Virus record (IMG/VR): IMGVR_UViG_3300010357_000155
Source of the DNA: an uncultured virus (IMG/VR IMGVR_UViG_3300010357_000155)
Taxonomy: Duplodnaviria > Heunggongvirae > Uroviricota > Caudoviricetes
Length of the DNA: 20,000 nt
Reading direction: 5' to 3' (one strand)
Below are positions 1-12,939 of this stretch, piece by piece. The notes beneath the pieces were generated by a model, which did not search any database, was not told the DNA's origin, and worked only from the letters and a program-made list of their open reading frames with translations. The position numbers were made by a program, and so were the translations under genes. Position 1 is the first letter of the stretch. Each line of letters begins with the position of its first letter.

Positions 1-269
1 ATAGTTTTTAAATAGCTATAGATATTATTATGTAAAAAAATAGCTTTTTCTATAAATGTTTGTGTCGTATATGGAAATTGCCCTGAACATTTAGGACAAC
101 CTTGACCATTTAAATGGTTAAATAATAACTGTTTAAATTCACCATGATCAGGACATATAATTGTGATAGGTGTTTTGGCGTTCACATATTTTATAAATGA
201 ATAATCATACAACTCACCATGAATTGCTTTTAATCTTTTTACAATTTCAGTTTCTGAAAGTTTTTTCAT
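1..269 (-). CDS. DUF723-like Zn-ribbon repeat protein, probable free-standing homing endonuclease (5' part only; runs off the window start)
   Basis: Manual translation from ATG at 269 is open to base 1: MKKLSETEIVKRLKAIHGELYDYSFIKYVNAKTPITIICPDHGEFKQLLFNHLNGQGCPKCSGQFPYTTQTFIEKAIFLHNNIYSYLKT. HGxxYDYS...IICPxHGxFxQ...HLxGxGCPKC is the DUF723-type repeat and a second repeat begins at FIEKA. No nuclease domain is visible within the window. Confidence 0.8.
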   Translation of the reverse strand, partial: MKKLSETEIVKRLKAIHGELYDYSFIKYVNAKTPITIICPDHGEFKQLLFNHLNGQGCPKCSGQFPYTTQTFIEKAIFLHNNIYSYLKT

Positions 270-301: not shown

Positions 302-354
302 GTGAAGTCCTTTATTGAATAGTCAGAAAATTTGTTTATAAAATAAAAAAGAAA

Positions 355-380
355 CATCCAGAGAGTTTCCTCTCTGGATG
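355..380 (-). terminator. Intrinsic terminator after the tail fibre gene
   Basis: Perfect 11-bp stem CATCCAGAGAG/CTCTCTGGATG, 4-nt loop, followed on the minus strand by TTTCTTTTTTATTTT. Confidence 0.85.
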
Positions 381-391
381 CTCTTATTACA

Positions 392-3223
392 TTAGTACTT
401 GATATAGCTATAAGAACCAAACGGCTCATCAGCTGAAAAATCAGGAAGAACAAATTTAGAAGTATTGATAACTAGGTCATTAGGAACAATAGTTCCGTCG
501 AAGTAAGGAGAGTAATCATTAATATCTGAAGAAAATGAAGCGGTATAAACGGTAGAAACAGTTACAGTACCATTCCAACCGCCTAACAAATAAATTCTAT
601 TTTTAAGTATAATTGCTTGTGACCAATCTAGAATAGAAGGTATGGAAGTACCAGTTGTCCAGGTTCCCAACGTACCATCTGAACTAATCGGTGCAGTATA
701 CACTGTAGTTGTCCAGCTAGTGCCGTTATAACCACCTAATAAATATGCACGATTAGATGTTACAACAGCCTGGGAACCATACAAAGCACCAGGTAATGAA
801 TTAGCAGTTGACCATACACCAATTACGCCATCGCTATTAATGGTAGCTGTATAAACAGTTGAAACAAATGTTGATGTACTACTACTTTGTCCGCTACAAA
901 TATAAACACGATTTTTAGTAATAATCACAGATGATGAATACAAAGGACCTGGTAACGAAGTGTCTATTACCCAAGCACCAATGGTACCGTCAGCATTAAT
1001 TGGTGCTGTATAAACAGTGGAAAGAATAGTAGTGGCGTTACTACCTCCTAACAGATAAACACGGTTCTTAGTAACAACAGCCTGAGAACCAAATATACCC
1101 CCAGGTAATGGAAGATCAGCAACCCAAGTACCGATAGTACCATCCAAATTAATCGGAGCAGTATAAACATTGGAAACAGCAGCAGTTCCATTGTAACCAC
1201 CTAACAAATATACACGATTCTTAGTGACAATGGATTGTGATTGAGCTAATACAATAGGTAGGGCTGTGCCTGCAGTCCAAGTTCCTAATGTACCGTCTGA
1301 ATTTATAGCTGCAGTATAAACTGCAGCGGTAGGTGGCATACCAGCACCAACACCACCACCTAAAAGATAAACACGATTAGAGGTTACAATAACCTGACCC
1401 GCACCTATCGCGGCAGGTAAAGCTGTACCTGCAGTCCAACCTGTGATATCAGTAGACTGAGTCGTATTGATCTGATACTGTTTTTGCCAAGGTTTACCAG
1501 AACCAGGCATCATGTAGTTAGTTAAATTGTCATCTTGATAATAACCGGAATAATCATTTAAACCACCGTTAATAGATGCGGAATAAATTGTAGCCAGTGC
1601 GGAGGTTCCATTCCAACCACCTAATAGATAGACACGATTATTAGTAACGATGGTTTGTGAATGCCCTAAAGCACTAGGTAACGGTGTCGTGACTGTCCAT
1701 GTTCCTAACGTACCATCACTATTAATCTTAGTTTTATAACATGTTGTTATATATGTAGCAGAAGCAGTTGCTCCGCCAAATAAATAAACAGTATTTTTGG
1801 TAACTAAAACTTGAGCTGCCGCCATAGCGTTAGGTAACGGAAGATCAGCAACCCAACTACCTAATGTACCGTCACTATTAATTGCAGCAGTGTATACAGT
1901 CGATAAAAATGTTGTTGTGTTCCGGCCACCTAACAGATAAACACGGTTCTTAGTAACAACAAATTGTGATTGCGCAATGGCCTCAGGTAACGCAGTTCCA
2001 GTAGTCCAAGCGCCTAACGTACCATCACTATTAATAGGAGCAGTATACACCGTACCAATATAAGCACTAGCATTGACCCCACCTAACAGATAAACACGAT
2101 TCTTTGTGATAACTGCTTGCGACATAGCTAACACACCAGGTAACGATGTATCTGTTACCCAAGTGCCGAGTGTACCGTCATCATTAATAACTGCAGTATA
2201 AACTACGTTAGTAGAGACGGTAGATGCATTTTCCCCACCTAACAGATAAACACGGTTCTTAGTAACGATAGCTTGCGATACTCCTAAAACACCAGGAAGA
2301 GGTGATCCAGTAGTCCAAACACCTAACGTACCGTCAGCATTAATTGGAGCAGTGTAAACAGCAGAACTATATGCAGATCCATTTGTTCCACCACAAAAAT
2401 ACACACGGTTCTTTGTCACAATAGCTGACGATGTGTATCGTGCAGAAGGTAATGCTGTTTCGGTTACCCAACCAATAATCTCTATAGACTGTGTCGCATT
2501 GATGTCATACTGCTGCTGCCAAGGGCGGCCTGCACCAGGAATAGAATTTTGAACAAAGTTATCACCAATCACGGCATATAAATTAGCGTATGTTGTTTTA
2601 TTGACTTCAGCGCCATTACACTTTAAGAAACCAGCAGGTGTGGTGCTATAAGGTTTACGAAGAATATCACCAACAGCAATTCCGCCACCACTAACAAGTG
2701 AATCAACATACTGTTTAGTAGCAGCATGTGTGGATAAAGTAGGGTTTTGACTTAACGTCAAGAATCCAGTTAATGTTCCTCCTGCTGATGAAACACCATC
2801 CAAAATACCATAACCACTTAAGGTTGTTGGTAATGTGTTGCTATTGATCTTTGACCAATCAACACCAAAAGGAATGTCTGCATCTGTAAGATTACCACCA
2901 CTTGTAACAATACCTTTAGCATTAACAGTAACTTTACCATAGCTACCTGGTATGACACCACTATTCGCAAGTGTAAATACACTCCCACCTTCAACTGTTT
3001 GTAAATCACCAGTTAAAGCAGGAAGTCTTGCAGCTGATAAAGTTCCACCAGTTAAATTACTGGCACTAACGCTATTAAAATATGCGTCGACATATTGCTT
3101 AGGAACAGCTTCTAATGTCTGACTAGGGTTGCCAGCCAATAATAACGGACCAGAAATATTACCACCGTTTTCTGAAATGCCGCCACCAGCATATCCACCC
3201 TGTTCGTAAAGATCAAGTCTCAT
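392..3223 (-). CDS. Tail fibre / receptor-binding protein with a split tail-collar domain and 12 Kelch-like repeats
   Basis: AAGGAG SD; two fibre repeats GG(N/T)(I/L)(S/T)GxLxLxxNP...KQYVD; GSYGKVTVNAKGIVT fibre motif; collar motif PAGFLKCNGAEVNKTTYANLYAVIG; 12 repeats of ~52 aa (KNRVYLLGG...VYTAPINxDGTLGxW...LP); C-terminal FVLPDF...YIKY. Confidence 0.85.
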   Translation of the reverse strand: MRLDLYEQGGYAGGGISENGGNISGPLLLAGNPSQTLEAVPKQYVDAYFNSVSASNLTGGTLSAARLPALTGDLQTVEGGSVFTLANSGVIPGSYGKVTVNAKGIVTSGGNLTDADIPFGVDWSKINSNTLPTTLSGYGILDGVSSAGGTLTGFLTLSQNPTLSTHAATKQYVDSLVSGGGIAVGDILRKPYSTTPAGFLKCNGAEVNKTTYANLYAVIGDNFVQNSIPGAGRPWQQQYDINATQSIEIIGWVTETALPSARYTSSAIVTKNRVYFCGGTNGSAYSSAVYTAPINADGTLGVWTTGSPLPGVLGVSQAIVTKNRVYLLGGENASTVSTNVVYTAVINDDGTLGTWVTDTSLPGVLAMSQAVITKNRVYLLGGVNASAYIGTVYTAPINSDGTLGAWTTGTALPEAIAQSQFVVTKNRVYLLGGRNTTTFLSTVYTAAINSDGTLGSWVADLPLPNAMAAAQVLVTKNTVYLFGGATASATYITTCYKTKINSDGTLGTWTVTTPLPSALGHSQTIVTNNRVYLLGGWNGTSALATIYSASINGGLNDYSGYYQDDNLTNYMMPGSGKPWQKQYQINTTQSTDITGWTAGTALPAAIGAGQVIVTSNRVYLLGGGVGAGMPPTAAVYTAAINSDGTLGTWTAGTALPIVLAQSQSIVTKNRVYLLGGYNGTAAVSNVYTAPINLDGTIGTWVADLPLPGGIFGSQAVVTKNRVYLLGGSNATTILSTVYTAPINADGTIGAWVIDTSLPGPLYSSSVIITKNRVYICSGQSSSTSTFVSTVYTATINSDGVIGVWSTANSLPGALYGSQAVVTSNRAYLLGGYNGTSWTTTVYTAPISSDGTLGTWTTGTSIPSILDWSQAIILKNRIYLLGGWNGTVTVSTVYTASFSSDINDYSPYFDGTIVPNDLVINTSKFVLPDFSADEPFGSYSYIKY
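476..2539 (-). repeat. Tandem duplication of a 344-codon propeller module (1508-2539 and ~476-1507), each with six ~156-nt blade repeats
   Basis: Module starts PGAGRPWQQQYDINATQS and PGSGKPWQKQYQINTTQS are 1032 nt apart; module ends LNDYSGYY and INDYSPYF. Confidence 0.9.
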
Positions 3224-3254
3224 GTTAACTCCTTAAGTTAGCCTTAAATATGGT

Positions 3255-3265
3255 TCACAGAATTC
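3255..3265 (-). promoter_or_regulatory. Candidate late promoter motif GAATTCTGTGA upstream of the tail fibre gene
   Basis: Matches the RAATTYTNTGA motif also seen at 323-333(-), 3302-3312(+) and 13942-13952(-). Confidence 0.45.
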
Positions 3266-3301
3266 TTTTAATCAATTAGCTGTATTAAAAAAATAAAGGC
3301 A

Positions 3302-3332: not shown

Positions 3333-5927
3333 ATGCCCGTCAATCCAAGTAGTTTAGTATCTATTATTAAACAAAATAAAGATAAGAAGATGGTCGCTAC
3401 CAAGATCATCGAAACCAATCCTAAGGTTCTTCCAGTACTTCCAAAGTTGATCTCTGATCCTGAGACTTCTAGAAGTATGATGACCAAAGATGATCGTTTA
3501 AATATCAATCGTAACTTGTTAGAAAATATATATCATAAAATCAAATCTGTTAAACAGAACAATAAAAACATTATTAAACTATTCCCGGATATCGAACTTG
3601 CTATTCAGATTCTCGTAAGTTCTATTTTGTCCCCTAAAAAGATGACAGATATTCAGCTTAACTATAAACTGGATAAAAATTTTAATATTAACACAGTTGC
3701 GTTGGCAACCATTATTGAAAAGGTAAAGACCTATATTAACGATGAATATGAACTTGAAGAGAAGCTTCCTGAAATTCTTCGTGAAGCTTTGTTTAGCTCA
3801 GGTGCATATGCGCTAGCAATTATTCCTGAGTCTTCTGTTGACGAAGTCATCAACACAGATCTTCTGCCGTCTTATTCCACGGAAGATTTTAAACAACGTG
3901 CAGATATTCTCATTCATAACCTAAGTAAACCAATTAATATTCTTGGAACAACAAATAGAGCTGTCGCACTAGAAACAACAGCTAAACCGGATAACTTTAT
4001 CCAACACCTTGCTTCTGAAGCATTTGTTAACATCACTGATAATATCGGTGTATTGAAATTCAATTCTATCCGTGAAAAGATTAATAAGTCTATTGTTAAT
4101 AACGCTATTAAGAAAAACATTGCTATTTCTACAGAGTCTCGGGAAAAGCTCGACTACCTAGATATCTTTAGACAGAAAACATCTATATCTGCTAATAAAG
4201 ATATTGAATTTCTTAAAACTAAAACTGAGACAAAACGTAAGTCTATCGGTAAACCGATGGTTATTAAAATTCCGACTGAGTCAGTTATTCCTATTTTTAT
4301 TCCCGGTGATGAAACGGAACACATTGGTTACTTCATCTTGTTAGATGAAACTGGTAAACCTTTAAACACTGAGATCAAAGATAACGACGTTAGCCAGCTT
4401 AATTCTATCATTAATCAATCTAGTTCAAGTAGTCAGCTGTCGCCGGTCCAGAAGGCTTACAATAGCCTTGTAGGGGATACTAACACTAATGTTGATATCA
4501 ATCAGTTATTTGGCATGTATAAAGATGTTCTTGAACGTCAAATTTATCAGTCTGTTAAGAATAGTCTTTATGGATCAAATATTGAAATTGCAAATAAGAA
4601 CGACATCTACTTCTTGATGTTTACTCGTGCTCTTGCTGATCAGAGAACCAGTGTTCTTTATGTTCCTAGGAACTTACTTATCTATTTTGCTTTCTACTAC
4701 AGTGAACTAGGTATCGGTAAATCTCTTCTTGAAAACTTATCTGTATTGTGTAGTCTTCGTGCTATTCTCTTGTTCTCCAAGGTTATGGCATATGCTAAAC
4801 AATCTATCGATGTTACCAAGGTAAATATTTCTCTTGATCCGAATGATCCTGATCCTGAGAAAACGATTGAGCAAGTTCAAGACTCTGTTCTTAAGCTTCG
4901 ACAGAACTATTTCCCATTGGGTATTAATAACCCTGTTGATCTGGTTAACTGGATTCAACGTGCTGGTTTACAATTTAGTTATAGTAACAATCCCTTGTTA
5001 CCTAATATTCAAATTGACTTTGAAAACGCCAATATTCAACATACCATCCCAAGTTCTGAACTTGAGGAAGATCTTCGTAAACAAACTATCCTTGCACTTG
5101 GTTTGACACCAGAAACAATTGATAACGGATTTACACCTGAGTTTGCAACCACCGTTGTAAATAATAACATTCTGTTATCTAAGCGTATATCTATTTATCA
5201 AAAAGCTTTGATTAAACATTTGTCAAACATGCTTTCAACAATTATCTATAACGATGAAGATCTTCGTAGTCAACTTCGTAAAGAAATCCTTGAAAATCTG
5301 GATTCTCTAAATGAACAACTAGACGATGAAGAAAAACAATTACTTACTAAGAGTAAAGATGAATTTGTAGAATATTTCTTAAACAAGTTCGGTGAAAGTT
5401 TGTATATTGAATTACCGAAACCTGAAAATACAAATCTGACCAATTTGTCAGCTGAATACGATATCTATAAAGATAACCTTGATAAGGTTCTTGACTCTGT
5501 TATGTCTAGCGAAATCTTCAGTGAGAATATTGCTGGTGAACTTTCCAACCATATTGATACGATTAAGAATATCTATAAACATCATTTGCTTCGTGCTTGG
5601 ATGGCCAATAATAACTTCTATCCAGAGGTTCTTGAATTTGGTAAACAGAACAATGAAACAGATGATGCTGACAAATTGCTTGATCTTATTAAAGAGCATT
5701 TGGTAGGTACGTCTAGAAATGCTGACAAGTTACTTAACCTTCTTCAGACTTATAAAGAAGCGCTTAATAAAGATCTTGAAATAGTTGCTGGTGACGCTGG
5801 TGCTGATTCTTCCTCATCTTCTTCGTCATTTGACGAAAATGGTGGTGATAATGAAGATGAGTCTGGTGGCGGAACAGGCGGCGATGATTTCGGTATCTCT
5901 GATGCTGACTTAGATTTGAAACTGTAA
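3333..5927 (+). CDS. Portal protein, phiKZ gp129-like
   Basis: 864 aa; GAGGA SD; PDIELAIQILVSSILSP, ALFxxGAY, GYFILLDETGKP and FATTVVNNNILLSKR motifs recalled from the phiKZ gp129 family; convergent orientation to the capsid/RNAP block as in phiKZ-like phages; acidic low-complexity C-tail. Confidence 0.75.
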   Translation: MPVNPSSLVSIIKQNKDKKMVATKIIETNPKVLPVLPKLISDPETSRSMMTKDDRLNINRNLLENIYHKIKSVKQNNKNIIKLFPDIELAIQILVSSILSPKKMTDIQLNYKLDKNFNINTVALATIIEKVKTYINDEYELEEKLPEILREALFSSGAYALAIIPESSVDEVINTDLLPSYSTEDFKQRADILIHNLSKPINILGTTNRAVALETTAKPDNFIQHLASEAFVNITDNIGVLKFNSIREKINKSIVNNAIKKNIAISTESREKLDYLDIFRQKTSISANKDIEFLKTKTETKRKSIGKPMVIKIPTESVIPIFIPGDETEHIGYFILLDETGKPLNTEIKDNDVSQLNSIINQSSSSSQLSPVQKAYNSLVGDTNTNVDINQLFGMYKDVLERQIYQSVKNSLYGSNIEIANKNDIYFLMFTRALADQRTSVLYVPRNLLIYFAFYYSELGIGKSLLENLSVLCSLRAILLFSKVMAYAKQSIDVTKVNISLDPNDPDPEKTIEQVQDSVLKLRQNYFPLGINNPVDLVNWIQRAGLQFSYSNNPLLPNIQIDFENANIQHTIPSSELEEDLRKQTILALGLTPETIDNGFTPEFATTVVNNNILLSKRISIYQKALIKHLSNMLSTIIYNDEDLRSQLRKEILENLDSLNEQLDDEEKQLLTKSKDEFVEYFLNKFGESLYIELPKPENTNLTNLSAEYDIYKDNLDKVLDSVMSSEIFSENIAGELSNHIDTIKNIYKHHLLRAWMANNNFYPEVLEFGKQNNETDDADKLLDLIKEHLVGTSRNADKLLNLLQTYKEALNKDLEIVAGDAGADSSSSSSSFDENGGDNEDESGGGTGGDDFGISDADLDLKL

Positions 5928-5978: not shown

Positions 5979-7286
5979 TTACACCTTCTTAATAAAGATA
6001 TCGCCGTTCAAAGCCATGGCGAATTGCAGAACAATCTTATCGATTGTAACCATATAGAATGTAAAGGTCTTTTGCTTGCTAAGAATAGTCTTGGCTGCAG
6101 ACATGATAAACACATTAATCAGATTATCTTCGATCTTGGTTAATTTGGTAGGTGCTTCAAGAACACCAAGTTCATGTGAGTATTTATCAACAAACGAGAT
6201 AACATGCTTTTCAGGAACATAAGTAACTTTCTTACCTTCCTGTTGATCGATACCACCGAGATCATTAAGACTGTTCTTAACCTGGGTGATGAAGGCATTC
6301 ATATAGTTAATCAGTTCGTCTTCAAGATCTTCTTCAGTATCTTCCAGATTACGGAGGAACTTCAGAAGCTCATTGAAATCAGCCATGAAAGAATCGATAT
6401 GAACTTCAACCGGAGAATTAACGGCAATAAAGTCATTGATCGTATCAGTCATGATCGTATCAAATGCATCAAGCATGTGAATATCATACTTATTAGTCAG
6501 AGTAGGCCAGGCTGCTTTGACTGCTTTATACATATTCTTGATATCATTGTCAAGAATAAGTTCATTGAATTTTGCTTGGTCAGCAGCCTTATAGAAGCTA
6601 TTTTCAACCAGGTAATGGCCGACCGAAATAAGTTTGTTAACACCCTCATCATGAGCATGATCGATACAGCTTTCGACAGCTTCTTCGAAACAATCAGTCA
6701 GCGTCAGTTTATCTTTTTGTTCATAAATTTGATTTGCTTTCACTTCGTCACAAAAGGTAGTCAGTGTAACTTTGTTATTACCGTTGAACTTAATACCTTT
6801 TGTCACGGTGATGCTAAATTCTTTACTCACTGGAGGAGTTTCAACTACTTCTTCCATAGGTTGCACCATATTTGTATTCGTTGATTGGAAACGAGAATCC
6901 ATTGTATAATCCCCGTCAGGAAATGCTGTCCCACTGACACCACCAGTGATCGCTTGGTTTTGATTACCAAAACGACCAGTGTTCATCGGCATACCACCCA
7001 TCACAGGCATACCACCGTTCATCGGCATCATATTCATATTCATAGGCATGCCAGTGTTCATTGGCATGTTAGGATTCATATTGGAAGGCATCATACCACC
7101 GCCTCCAGACAAAGCCTGAGCTTGCTGAGGAGTGACTACCATTCCATTCGGTAGCATAATCATACCGTTAGGAAGCTGAATAACATTACCTGCATTCTGC
7201 GGTTGTTGCATTTGCTGTTGCTGCTGTTGTGGCTGCATACTACGCATATGACCTCCCGCAGGATGTGGGTTATTGAAACGATGCAT
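5979..7286 (-). CDS. Hypothetical protein in the phiKZ gp124 position, with a Met/Gln/Pro/Gly/Asn-rich disordered N-terminus
   Basis: AAGGAG SD; 435 aa; lies directly downstream of the gp123-like gene. Homology inferred from position only. Confidence 0.7.
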   Translation of the reverse strand: MHRFNNPHPAGGHMRSMQPQQQQQQMQQPQNAGNVIQLPNGMIMLPNGMVVTPQQAQALSGGGGMMPSNMNPNMPMNTGMPMNMNMMPMNGGMPVMGGMPMNTGRFGNQNQAITGGVSGTAFPDGDYTMDSRFQSTNTNMVQPMEEVVETPPVSKEFSITVTKGIKFNGNNKVTLTTFCDEVKANQIYEQKDKLTLTDCFEEAVESCIDHAHDEGVNKLISVGHYLVENSFYKAADQAKFNELILDNDIKNMYKAVKAAWPTLTNKYDIHMLDAFDTIMTDTINDFIAVNSPVEVHIDSFMADFNELLKFLRNLEDTEEDLEDELINYMNAFITQVKNSLNDLGGIDQQEGKKVTYVPEKHVISFVDKYSHELGVLEAPTKLTKIEDNLINVFIMSAAKTILSKQKTFTFYMVTIDKIVLQFAMALNGDIFIKKV

Positions 7287-10782: not shown

Positions 10783-12939
10783 TTACACTGAGTGCATATT
10801 GACAGAAATCTTACCAGTAACTTCCGGAAGACCAGAAACGGTCAGCATGGTCATGATCGGCAGATTAACGTTGTGCAGGAAGCGCGGAGCAACGATCAGT
10901 TCCTTAGAAACTTGACCATCACGGGAAACCGGCATAACGACGGTCAGTTCCGGCGACCAGAGCATGTTACCGAAGTTCAGCGGATTGATACCCGTGTTAC
11001 GAGCAGAATCAAACACACCAAACGACAGGAAGATCTTACCAGAGACGCGATGGTCAAGGGTAGAGACAACACGAACGTCGAAGGTTTCACCCAGTGTACG
11101 CAGATCGCCATCGGCCATCAGGTAGTTGTAAATAACCGGGTCAGTACCAACCACAACAGTCGGCTTGAAACCAGTATTGCCAGTCAGAACAGCGGCAGCA
11201 GCCTTGTATTCAGACGAACGATACATTTCGTTAGCGTAGTAACGGATCTTTTCGACCAGAGCAGCGCGAATGTCCTTGATCTTCTCGTGGGACTTCAGGC
11301 TGTCAACGGTAACCGGCAGACTGATTGATTCCTGGAAGTAGACCGGCTTGACATACAGATGACCGAAGGCATTGATTTCCGGCAGATCGCCGTTAGCATC
11401 AGCAACCGGAGAGTACGAAGCCAGAGACACTTGAGCACGCAGCAGTGAAGAAACAGCTTCGTTCGAGACACGGATACCAGTGGTGGTGATCAGGGTCTGG
11501 AGAGCGGAGTTGTCATCACCAGTAGCGTTAACAACCGGCATGATGATCGACAGCGGTGAACGGTACGGAACCGGAATCACACGGTATTCGACTTGTGAGT
11601 CGAGCAGTTGACCACGTTGACGGATGTTGCTGTTAGCACGGAAAGCCGTGATAGAGTAACCGATAACTTCAGCGGCAGAGATCTTACCAGCCAGTGTATT
11701 GAACGTTGCACCAGAAACCAGCATGTCGCCAGCATTACGCAGAGCAACCAGACCCAGCGTGCCACCAGAAACCAGGCAGTCGCCCTTGTCCAGAGAAACA
11801 TTGCCAGAGATCGACAGTTGGATACGAGCCTTGTGCGTGGTGAGTTCCGGCAGGGAAGCAGGAGCAGCACCAGTAACGTCCAGGGTCGAAGCATCCAGAA
11901 CCAGCGCATCGGAGTCCATCGCCAACAGCATACGGCGATAGTTACCTTGCGGAGCGTACGTAAACGTAGAACCCGGCTTTTCGTCAACTTGAACGCGGAT
12001 CACATCAGTGTTGGTACCATCGGTAACCTTGATGAAGACAGCTTCCAGCTTGATATAGGTATCCAGAGCATCTGAAGGACCCATGATGCCGCTGTTCAGC
12101 AGTTCATTGGTTTGCGAAATACCGATCAGATCGATCTTGGTGTCAACCTTAACAGCAGCAGTTTGCACTGTGATGCTGTTACCGATAGCAACGTTCCAAG
12201 CCGGAACATCAGCAACCGGAACGAACTTGTCGGTGTTGTCATCAGAACCACCACCATTACGGAGAACCGGAATAGCACGGGTCAGTTCGTTCTTCAGGAT
12301 TTCTGCATCGGCGTAGGCACGGATAACACTCTTACGAGCATAGTTGGCCAGGGAACCGGTAACAGAACGCTTGAAGTCATTGAAAACGTAGAACAGCTTG
12401 GCAGACAGAGTCACGCCAACTTCGTTCGGGTTAACAACGATGGTCGGGAAGAAGGTTTCGCCGAATTCATCTTGACGCGAGGCCAGCAGGTTGTAGATGA
12501 TCGAATACAATTGTGCATTGCGATTATCACGCTCGTCATAGGCTTCGGTAGCGATCTGCGGACGTTCCATGAAACCGTCAGACACACCAGCAACCATAAC
12601 GATAGCATCGTTACCCATAGACTTCAGCTTTGAGCCCAGAACTTGCTTCGGGTTGGTAGCCAGCATACCGGCGAGCGTTGCGGCTTCCAGTTGTTGACCT
12701 TCAACAGCGATGTTAAATTCTTGAGCGATCGTCTTCAACGAAGTTTCGATGTTGTTGTAGACGTTGGTCAGCATGGTTTCTGCATTGGCATCCATGCTCT
12801 CGGTAGAGATAGCATATTGACCAATCTTCTCGTCATTGAAACCACGGGAAGCGGTAATCTGACCAACCTTTTCAGTCAGGCCACCGATCGGGTCAACGAC
12901 GACTGATTTACGACCAGAAAGCAGTTTTTGAATAGACAT
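10783..12939 (-). CDS. Major capsid protein precursor, phiKZ gp120-like
   Basis: 718 aa; AGGAG SD; E-AYDER...YSIIYNLLASRQDEFGETFFPTIVV, NSNIRQRGQLLD, VVGTDP and PRFLHNVNLPI motifs typical of phiKZ-type capsid proteins; strongly biased codon usage. Confidence 0.9.
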   Translation of the reverse strand: MSIQKLLSGRKSVVVDPIGGLTEKVGQITASRGFNDEKIGQYAISTESMDANAETMLTNVYNNIETSLKTIAQEFNIAVEGQQLEAATLAGMLATNPKQVLGSKLKSMGNDAIVMVAGVSDGFMERPQIATEAYDERDNRNAQLYSIIYNLLASRQDEFGETFFPTIVVNPNEVGVTLSAKLFYVFNDFKRSVTGSLANYARKSVIRAYADAEILKNELTRAIPVLRNGGGSDDNTDKFVPVADVPAWNVAIGNSITVQTAAVKVDTKIDLIGISQTNELLNSGIMGPSDALDTYIKLEAVFIKVTDGTNTDVIRVQVDEKPGSTFTYAPQGNYRRMLLAMDSDALVLDASTLDVTGAAPASLPELTTHKARIQLSISGNVSLDKGDCLVSGGTLGLVALRNAGDMLVSGATFNTLAGKISAAEVIGYSITAFRANSNIRQRGQLLDSQVEYRVIPVPYRSPLSIIMPVVNATGDDNSALQTLITTTGIRVSNEAVSSLLRAQVSLASYSPVADANGDLPEINAFGHLYVKPVYFQESISLPVTVDSLKSHEKIKDIRAALVEKIRYYANEMYRSSEYKAAAAVLTGNTGFKPTVVVGTDPVIYNYLMADGDLRTLGETFDVRVVSTLDHRVSGKIFLSFGVFDSARNTGINPLNFGNMLWSPELTVVMPVSRDGQVSKELIVAPRFLHNVNLPIMTMLTVSGLPEVTGKISVNMHSV

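Follow-up and report, generated by a model that had tools for sequence, protein, structure and literature searches.

In the T4 fibre protein gp37, the binding domain D11 is inserted into the collar-fold domain D10 (residues 811-881 plus 1010-1026), according to the available text of the structural report (PMC6957217), so that a collar split by a payload is a known design. Kelch-like proteins have been reported in jumbo phages with unknown function, and the accessible part of one report places one of them in the virions of phage CBB (PMC5259590). Here, we describe a predicted fibre protein that joins the two elements. The gene lies at 392..3223 on the minus strand of a 20,000-nucleotide stretch of DNA (the window), which is the end of a 128,752-base uncultured virus record (IMG/VR IMGVR_UViG_3300010357_000155) estimated to be 64% complete. 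The encoded protein (the query) has 943 amino acids (aa) and yields Pfam and PHROG matches. An initial annotation, made from the letters of the window, had proposed two six-bladed Kelch-like propellers inside a split tail-collar domain, and we regard this architecture, taken alone, as almost certain.

Domain architecture and propeller fold

The N-terminal region (aa 1-181; 2681..3223) is the fibre shaft or attachment region, matching the PHROG tail-fibre families 7389 and 523, and its predicted local distance difference test score (pLDDT) is about 36-63 in blocks of ten residues, which is low as a monomer. It is followed by the first part of the collar (aa 182-227; 2543..2680), where the Pfam Collar family (PF07484) matches aa 185-226 with 37.4 bits (cut-off 24), covering only positions 1-42 of the 57 in the model. 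The collar stretch quoted in the initial annotation was located at aa 196-220 (window 2564-2638). The last part of the collar comprises aa 921-943 and the stop codon (392..463) and consists of an FxLP strand and a terminal YIK strand with no head between them; the motif FVLPDF is found at aa 924-929 (437-454) and YIKY at aa 940-943 (395-406). The gap between the collar helix and FxLP measures 703 aa, in line with the separation of about 700 aa given before.

Two cassettes, 56% identical to each other (191/339), lie in the gap; their start motifs are at aa 232 and aa 576, a spacing of 344 aa. Cassette 1 (aa 232-575; 1499..2530) is composed of a GxPWQ start motif, six Kelch-like blades (approximately aa 246-555), an NDYS end motif and a linker, and cassette 2 (aa 576-919; 467..1498) likewise contains six Kelch-like blades (approximately aa 591-899) and an NDYS end motif. 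The twelve blades are spaced by 51-53 aa, with a single 87-aa gap after the sixth blade, and the Kelch profile PF24681 reaches 122 bits (cut-off 50). The AlphaFold2 model, built from 52 sequences, has a mean pLDDT of 76.6, with the propellers mostly at 82-94 per block and the last 23 residues at 69-82. In VIA-align, cassette 1 superposes with the LZTR1 Kelch domain (Z 31.8, root mean square deviation [rmsd] 2.6, 288 residues aligned) and cassette 2 with the KLHL12 Kelch domain (Z 29.9, rmsd 2.4, 265 aligned), and both cassettes also match six-bladed Kelch propellers in Foldseek. Blade spacing, Pfam and both structure comparisons bear out the two six-bladed Kelch-like propellers as predicted folds.

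The collar is split by the insert

Four relatives of 247-260 aa carry a query-like shaft and a collar loop of only 8-13 residues, and are called empty relatives here. They match Pfam Collar from position 1 to position 53-55 of 57 with 41.6-54.3 bits, so that the full collar match expected for an insert-deleted form is given by natural proteins. A profile built from the four hits the query twice, with profile positions 2-47 at aa 182-227 and positions 49-71 at aa 921-943; this second match is weak for the four-cassette proteins and for those of Bacillus phage vB_BspM_AgentSmith.

The structure model of one empty collar (pLDDT 86.6) shows its strands and main helix in the same order as the two parts in the full model. 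Over its whole length it matches T4 gp12 340..525 (PDB ID 1ocy; Z 7.5, rmsd 2.3, 65 aligned) and gp37 812..1025 (Z 7.3), with all five top entries being fibre collars, although VIA-align Z values below 8 may reflect a common arrangement. Foldseek returned the matching collar entries at E 0.006-0.75. When the collar halves were modelled as three plus three chains, the docking score was 0.76, versus 0.00 for the best of three controls; this mark was reached by 116 of 157 solved pairs and 2 of 215 mismatched pairs, with only the partner scored here and the job unlike those of the calibration set. The runs share at least 91% of the contacts, with a pLDDT of at least 73 for the partner and of 85-86 for the N-terminal part. 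The modelled contacts to the first collar part (aa 182-226) connect aa 185-187 and 199-202 with 940-942, and aa 204-207 with 924-926, which is the predicted packing of the FVLPDF segment on the N-terminal collar half. The pass may stem from a likeness to solved collars.

Because the two-piece match of the empty-relative profile, the fold match of the empty collar and the docking of the halves agree, we consider the split real, as first proposed, with the closure of the collar being a predicted one. That the C-terminal motif is a chance look-alike and the differences in cassette number are repeat assembly artefacts is largely refuted and hardly credible. The C-terminal 42 aa alone give no Pfam match, exact repeats of up to 33 bp occur between blades, and two blades are missing from one contig at a repeat of this kind; against this, the empty relatives have loop sequences of their own and sit on contigs of up to 45 and 88 kb, one of them adjoining a propeller-filled paralog in a viral contig (L056), the one-cassette form occurs three times in a cultured, complete genome, and the modelled closure has controls at 0.00.

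Cassette number and other inserts in the collar loop

Both the collar start and the FxLP...YxK end are present in 112 of the 120 listed relatives, while seven have neither and one has the start only. The family set, also of 120, consists of these 112 and eight proteins from other searches, and the insert was measurable in 107. The initial annotation had proposed a search for relatives with no, one, two or different inserts at the same loop. The insert lengths cluster near 10, 350, 700, 1040 and 1390 aa, corresponding to zero, one, two, three and four cassettes, with about nine proteins in between, and the distance from FxLP to the end is 18-23 aa across the family (the pattern allowed up to about 29). 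Proteins with 1, 3, 4, 5 or 9 blades (P0181, P0344, L073, P0115 and P0093) were left out as possible collapsed assemblies. In other phages, collar-Kelch genes are also found in tandem arrays of three or four (L030, L031, L032, L035 and L013).

Eight proteins contain a further Gly/Thr-rich domain nested in a blade loop, which makes three levels of insertion (P0056, P0082, P0095, P0096, P0007, P0078, L039:2950-6390 and L047:2980-6213). The nested domain has about 170 aa in most carriers and more than 400 aa in L047, and neither Pfam nor Atlas gave a name for it. The search with the cassette in Atlas returned only leads below 0.9.

The modules of the protein bear on whether it belongs to the virion. 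If the protein acted in the infected cell or the lysate, as a Kelch-type adaptor that binds proteins or as a decoy, this would fit with the closest solved folds, which are intracellular Kelch adaptors, and with a protein known here from genes alone. We consider such a non-virion role improbable, as the shaft and the collar are fibre modules and other phages (L018, L033, L042 and L059) have the collar-Kelch unit after fibre-like N-termini of different kinds.

In two unrelated proteins, Asp-box/BNR-type repeats appear to occupy the same collar loop. One has 402 aa (L171:804-2012 (-)) and a headless-collar-like end, and the other, a 506-aa protein from a podovirus record (UOF79773.1; L172:856-2376 (+)), looks alike; in this pair, the C-terminal collar half was mostly recognised by eye, with a profile E value of 0.003 for one and no match for the other. 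The two apparent Asp-box inserts in the same loop make it appear to be a socket for more than one type of propeller, and together with the zero to four cassettes they agree with the earlier idea of a plug-in site. In L172, about 80 additional residues are also present in an earlier loop of the collar.

The loop before FxLP is rarely split in the sequences surveyed. Of 139 Collar matches in 301 genomes from a single phylum, 137 extend to position 52 or beyond, the two exceptions being the Kelch type that seeded the sample and the 402-aa Asp-box protein. A list biased to multi-collar proteins contains 414 uninterrupted collar copies out of 415, with a three-blade Kelch protein as the one split case, and the 11 collar matches in 251 small genomes are all uninterrupted. 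A word-index search with the empty collar, which is a weak search, gave no match for other payloads among longer proteins. The metagenome scan with the Asp-box protein found one locus, which lacks a collar, and the PDB sequence search gave a weak match for the collar only (E 0.019) and none for the Asp-box protein. Seven proteins (P0248, P0251, P0254, P0256, P0285, P0333 and P0375) consist of three to six tandem copies of a headless collar domain.

Query-type blades are common in large bacterial proteins. Up to 38 INxDGTLG Kelch blades were detected in very large proteins of Elusimicrobia, Saccharibacteria and other bacteria (L071, L085, L096, L108 and further loci).

Cassettes are probably exchanged rather than duplicated in place

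The genome under study encodes four collar-Kelch paralogs with one, two, two and three cassettes. It had been supposed that a cassette was inserted into the collar loop and then duplicated, and this was not borne out. Each cassette of the query finds the other only at rank 36 or 39 of 223, and in multi-cassette proteins the sibling is the best match for only 10 of 208 cassettes. Since the cassettes are not mutual nearest relatives and siblings are rarely the best match, a recent duplication in place is unlikely, and exchange among paralogs and strains appears likelier.

Twelve close pairs were picked by hand from the scaffold tree, in a list biased to differing inserts since clustering at 90% hides pairs with equal ones. 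Their identity is 91-99% for the scaffold, falls to 45-63% for the insert and is 85-100% for the tail. The query and its closest relative share 98% of the scaffold, 63% of the insert and 100% of the tail. In one pair within a 90% cluster, a single cassette of the four holds 74 of 109 differences. The tail is matched at 91-92% by contigs from two studies, which diverge past position 520, at the NDYS motif, and one contig matches the scaffold at 96.5% over 2498-3274 and diverges at the cassette border. Comparison of the different paralogs in this genome gave three exact matches of at least 22 bp (27, 37 and 41 bp), and all lie in the cassette junction (NDYS...PGSGKPWQ; 1438..1561), a likely recombination handle that holds the longest exact DNA matches between the paralogs; the 37-bp match at aa 581 and the 27-bp match at aa 572 are with the paralog that has three cassettes. 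The differences confined to one cassette, the breakpoints at cassette borders and the exact matches in the junction indicate an exchange of blocks.

Two observations tell against this view, namely that differences within clusters are few (0.6% in the scaffold, 1.3% in the insert and 2.1% in the variable loops) and that the exact matches connect only two of the six paralog pairs. Additionally, silent sites are near saturation in six gene pairs (about 33-63% at four-fold sites), so exchange and selection are not separable in this comparison and positive selection may contribute. The tree of the N-terminal scaffold (FastTree, 108 rows) implies at least 37 changes of cassette number, a count made without a shuffled control and in which gain and loss are not separable, and the types of C-terminal tail follow the scaffold clades, as read by eye. 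The joints in contigs are mostly short blade-to-blade matches. A clean skip of 309 bp (two blades) was set aside, since an exact repeat of 32 bp flanks it and the assembly may have jumped there. As for a diversity-generating retroelement, no PF00078 match for a reverse transcriptase was found in the genome, which is incomplete by the estimate given above, and close strains differ at few sites.

Variable face, ligand and catalysis

In Kelch structures, the loops after LP and after GG form the ligand-binding face. Across the cassettes, the entropy is 3.28 bits in the loop after LP and 2.87 bits after GG, versus 1.10 and 0.96 bits in the opposite turns, so the variation appears to concentrate on the presumed binding face. 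Frequent residues are Tyr (27%) and Trp (8%) directly after GG and Tyr (18%) in the other loop.

The Pfam NANM family matches with an E value of 1.7e-19, the YjhT/NanM structure superposes with a Z of 30.3, and some database names read "N-acetylneuraminic acid mutarotase", all of which would suit propellers that are NanM- or galactose-oxidase-type enzymes modifying surface sugars. Such enzymes have a conserved catalytic Glu or metal-binding His or Cys. Among the 224 cassettes, no column contains His, Cys or Glu at 25% or more, which argues against this kind of catalysis; furthermore, the strongly conserved polar residues all recur in each blade or fall in the junction, and in some propellers the blades are 80-90% identical to each other, leaving the enzymatic explanation quite improbable. 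Highly similar blades are a mark of recent amplification in propellers generally, as stated in the accessible text (PMC9218822).

Genomic setting

The divergent neighbour at 3333..5927 (+) encodes a phiKZ-type virion structural protein (phrog_3004), which we take to be the portal, and a gene of this type also flanks the related gene in AgentSmith and in locus L015, as found by tblastn over the loci and from the annotation. The window further encodes a phiKZ-type major capsid protein (PF25620) and RNA polymerase subunits, and elsewhere in the record there is a chimallin gene (PF25677, 76 bits, cut-off 27) and a tubulin-like protein (E 3e-7, just below the family cut-off). Judged by these genes, the source virus is a chimallin-encoding jumbo phage, with AgentSmith as the nearest cultured phage (62% for the capsid protein and 61% for chimallin). 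At least half of the sampled words of the collar-Kelch gene are present in nine sequencing runs, or, leaving aside two possible sources, in seven runs of three studies, which are digester, sludge and wastewater metagenomes; runs with a small share of the words were left out of the habitat assignment.

Several other features of the genome were noted. Directly downstream of the fibre gene (window 3-269 (-)), an endonuclease-like gene of 316 aa begins, which has two zinc-finger-like repeats and which AgentSmith lacks at the corresponding place beside its fibre gene. The major capsid gene (10783-12939 (-)) has a GC content of 48-53%, versus about 35% in the remaining window. A 435-aa protein (5979-7286 (-)), adjoining an RNA polymerase subunit gene, has a long N-terminus of low complexity that is rich in Gln, Met, Pro and Asn, and has no match in Pfam or PHROG. 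Elsewhere, a fibre-like protein of 1780 aa (G000:C1:51775-57117 (-)) has about 19 copies of the shaft repeat of the query (aa 144-175) and no collar.

Proposed function

To our knowledge, little is known about host recognition by nucleus-forming jumbo phages. We think that the query is probably a variable, non-enzymatic surface binder on a virion fibre, where the virion location, the trimer, the binding and the recombination mechanism are what we infer from the genes and models. Anchoring and trimerisation of the fibre would fall to the N-terminal shaft. The two collar parts would fold back together, as in the model, holding the propeller string as a side loop, and the trimer would show six propellers where T4 fibres carry a central head. 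The propellers are likely to serve as variable, exchangeable grips on the bacterial surface. Paralogs and strains gain, lose and replace cassettes, and recombination at the conserved junction is the most likely route. In AgentSmith, the homologs bear the annotation "putative tail fiber".

Four points weigh against a binder on a virion fibre. The shaft is modelled poorly by AlphaFold2, with a full-length predicted template modelling score of 0.46; the gene adjoins a virion structural gene, outside any tail-fibre cluster; the phage is known here from sequence alone; and the variable loops show no overall enrichment of aromatic residues (0.10-0.11 versus 0.09), the excess being limited to the single positions named above. 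The absence of an overall aromatic excess leaves the label "lectin", which the initial annotation had offered as a possibility, without direct support, and we regard it as unsupported.

The genomic position is also what one would expect of virion appendages on the tail sheath, neck or head, which would adhere to the biofilm or sludge matrix or decorate the particle without deciding the host range. The four paralogs are scattered and none is in a fibre cluster. Large proteins of Saccharibacteria, Elusimicrobia and others share the query-type blades, and many of them begin, as judged by eye, like signal peptides; a collar is present in only 2 of 82 such open reading frames. In jumbo phage CBB, a Kelch protein is a component of a hairy virion, according to the available text (PMC5259590). 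On the other side, the presumed binding face changes fast on a scaffold that is nearly constant, as host-driven selection would lead one to expect, and the T4 collar domains sit on receptor-binding fibres, as the accessible text describes (PMC6957217). We therefore view the appendage explanation as unlikely, though clearly less so than the adaptor or the enzyme, and prefer the binder on a virion fibre.

A wider scenario is more doubtful, although we consider it possible. Here, the collar would be a general socket with a second payload site, at least three fibre genes per genome would swap cassettes via a conserved junction of 30-40 bp, and strings of one to four binders, some with nested domains, would set the host range without a reverse transcriptase. 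Virophage collar proteins form heterotrimers, according to the part of the report that is available (PMC12724248), and by analogy mixed trimers among the paralogs of this genome are possible.

The family offers a concrete candidate for host recognition, combining a constant fibre scaffold with countable, exchangeable binding domains, and the three one-cassette versions in the cultured AgentSmith make the architecture experimentally accessible. The collar domain appears able to accept a payload at a second loop and to close around up to 1,400 residues, which matters for the interpretation of split Pfam hits and for the evolution of fibre tips.

Comparison with known systems

The closest relatives in a cultured phage are genes 3, 64 and 123 of AgentSmith (MW749006), which share the shaft, the split collar and the Kelch cassette with the query. 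Gene 64 has the same divergent neighbour as the query, and gene 123 adjoins SbcD, as do paralogs in the genome studied here. The AgentSmith genes have one cassette each, whereas the two syntenic genes here have two and three. The one paper found to name AgentSmith deals with endolysins. In the same record (51995-54844), gene 56 is labelled major capsid protein, and the capsid match falls on gene 57, which is labelled hypothetical.

The Kelch-like proteins of jumbo phages include those of CBB (550, 552 and 554), EL and phiR1-37, and the top matches in a viral fold library are predicted propeller proteins of PhiPA3, PS119XW and Noxifer. No Collar match was found in CBB or EL. In phage phiR1-37, a single collar runs uninterrupted (1-57 of 57) and its frame is not one of the Kelch frames, whereas the collar of the query is split by Kelch cassettes. 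The novelty suggested by the initial annotation thus holds in part. The insertion of a binding domain into a collar is known from gp37 (PMC6957217), and Kelch proteins are known in jumbo phages (PMC5259590), as far as the accessible text of both reports goes; propellers inside a collar were not found described in the literature searched, which covered few subscription journals and no supplements.

The propellers themselves share the six-bladed fold with eukaryotic Kelch proteins (KLHL12, LZTR1 and Keap1) and with bacterial NanM/YjhT (Z of about 30, rmsd 2.2-2.6). Unlike these, they have a conserved INxDGTLG hairpin in each blade, are embedded in a fibre protein and lack a conserved catalytic set, and the identity is only 15-20%. 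The headless collar repeats (P0248, P0251 and P0333) resemble the query in the short link from FxLP to the terminal strand, but their loops are empty.

The arrangement is most like that of T4 gp12 and gp37 (PDB IDs 1ocy, 5lye and 2xgf) and of the cyanophage A-1(L) fibre (PDB ID 8kec), with an N-terminal collar part, a terminal strand and a payload between them. Seven canonical collar proteins among the matches carry the payload after FxLP, with 85-106 aa to the end and a loop of 11-33 aa, whereas the query has only 20 aa after FxLP and 703 aa in the loop before it, and the site of the T4-type head is empty. The T4 payload is an intertwined metal-binding head, while that of the query is predicted to consist of propellers, which vary in number from one to four per chain in the family. 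The query therefore seems to be a variant of the collar-plus-payload fibre tip, with the payload at a different site from that in T4.

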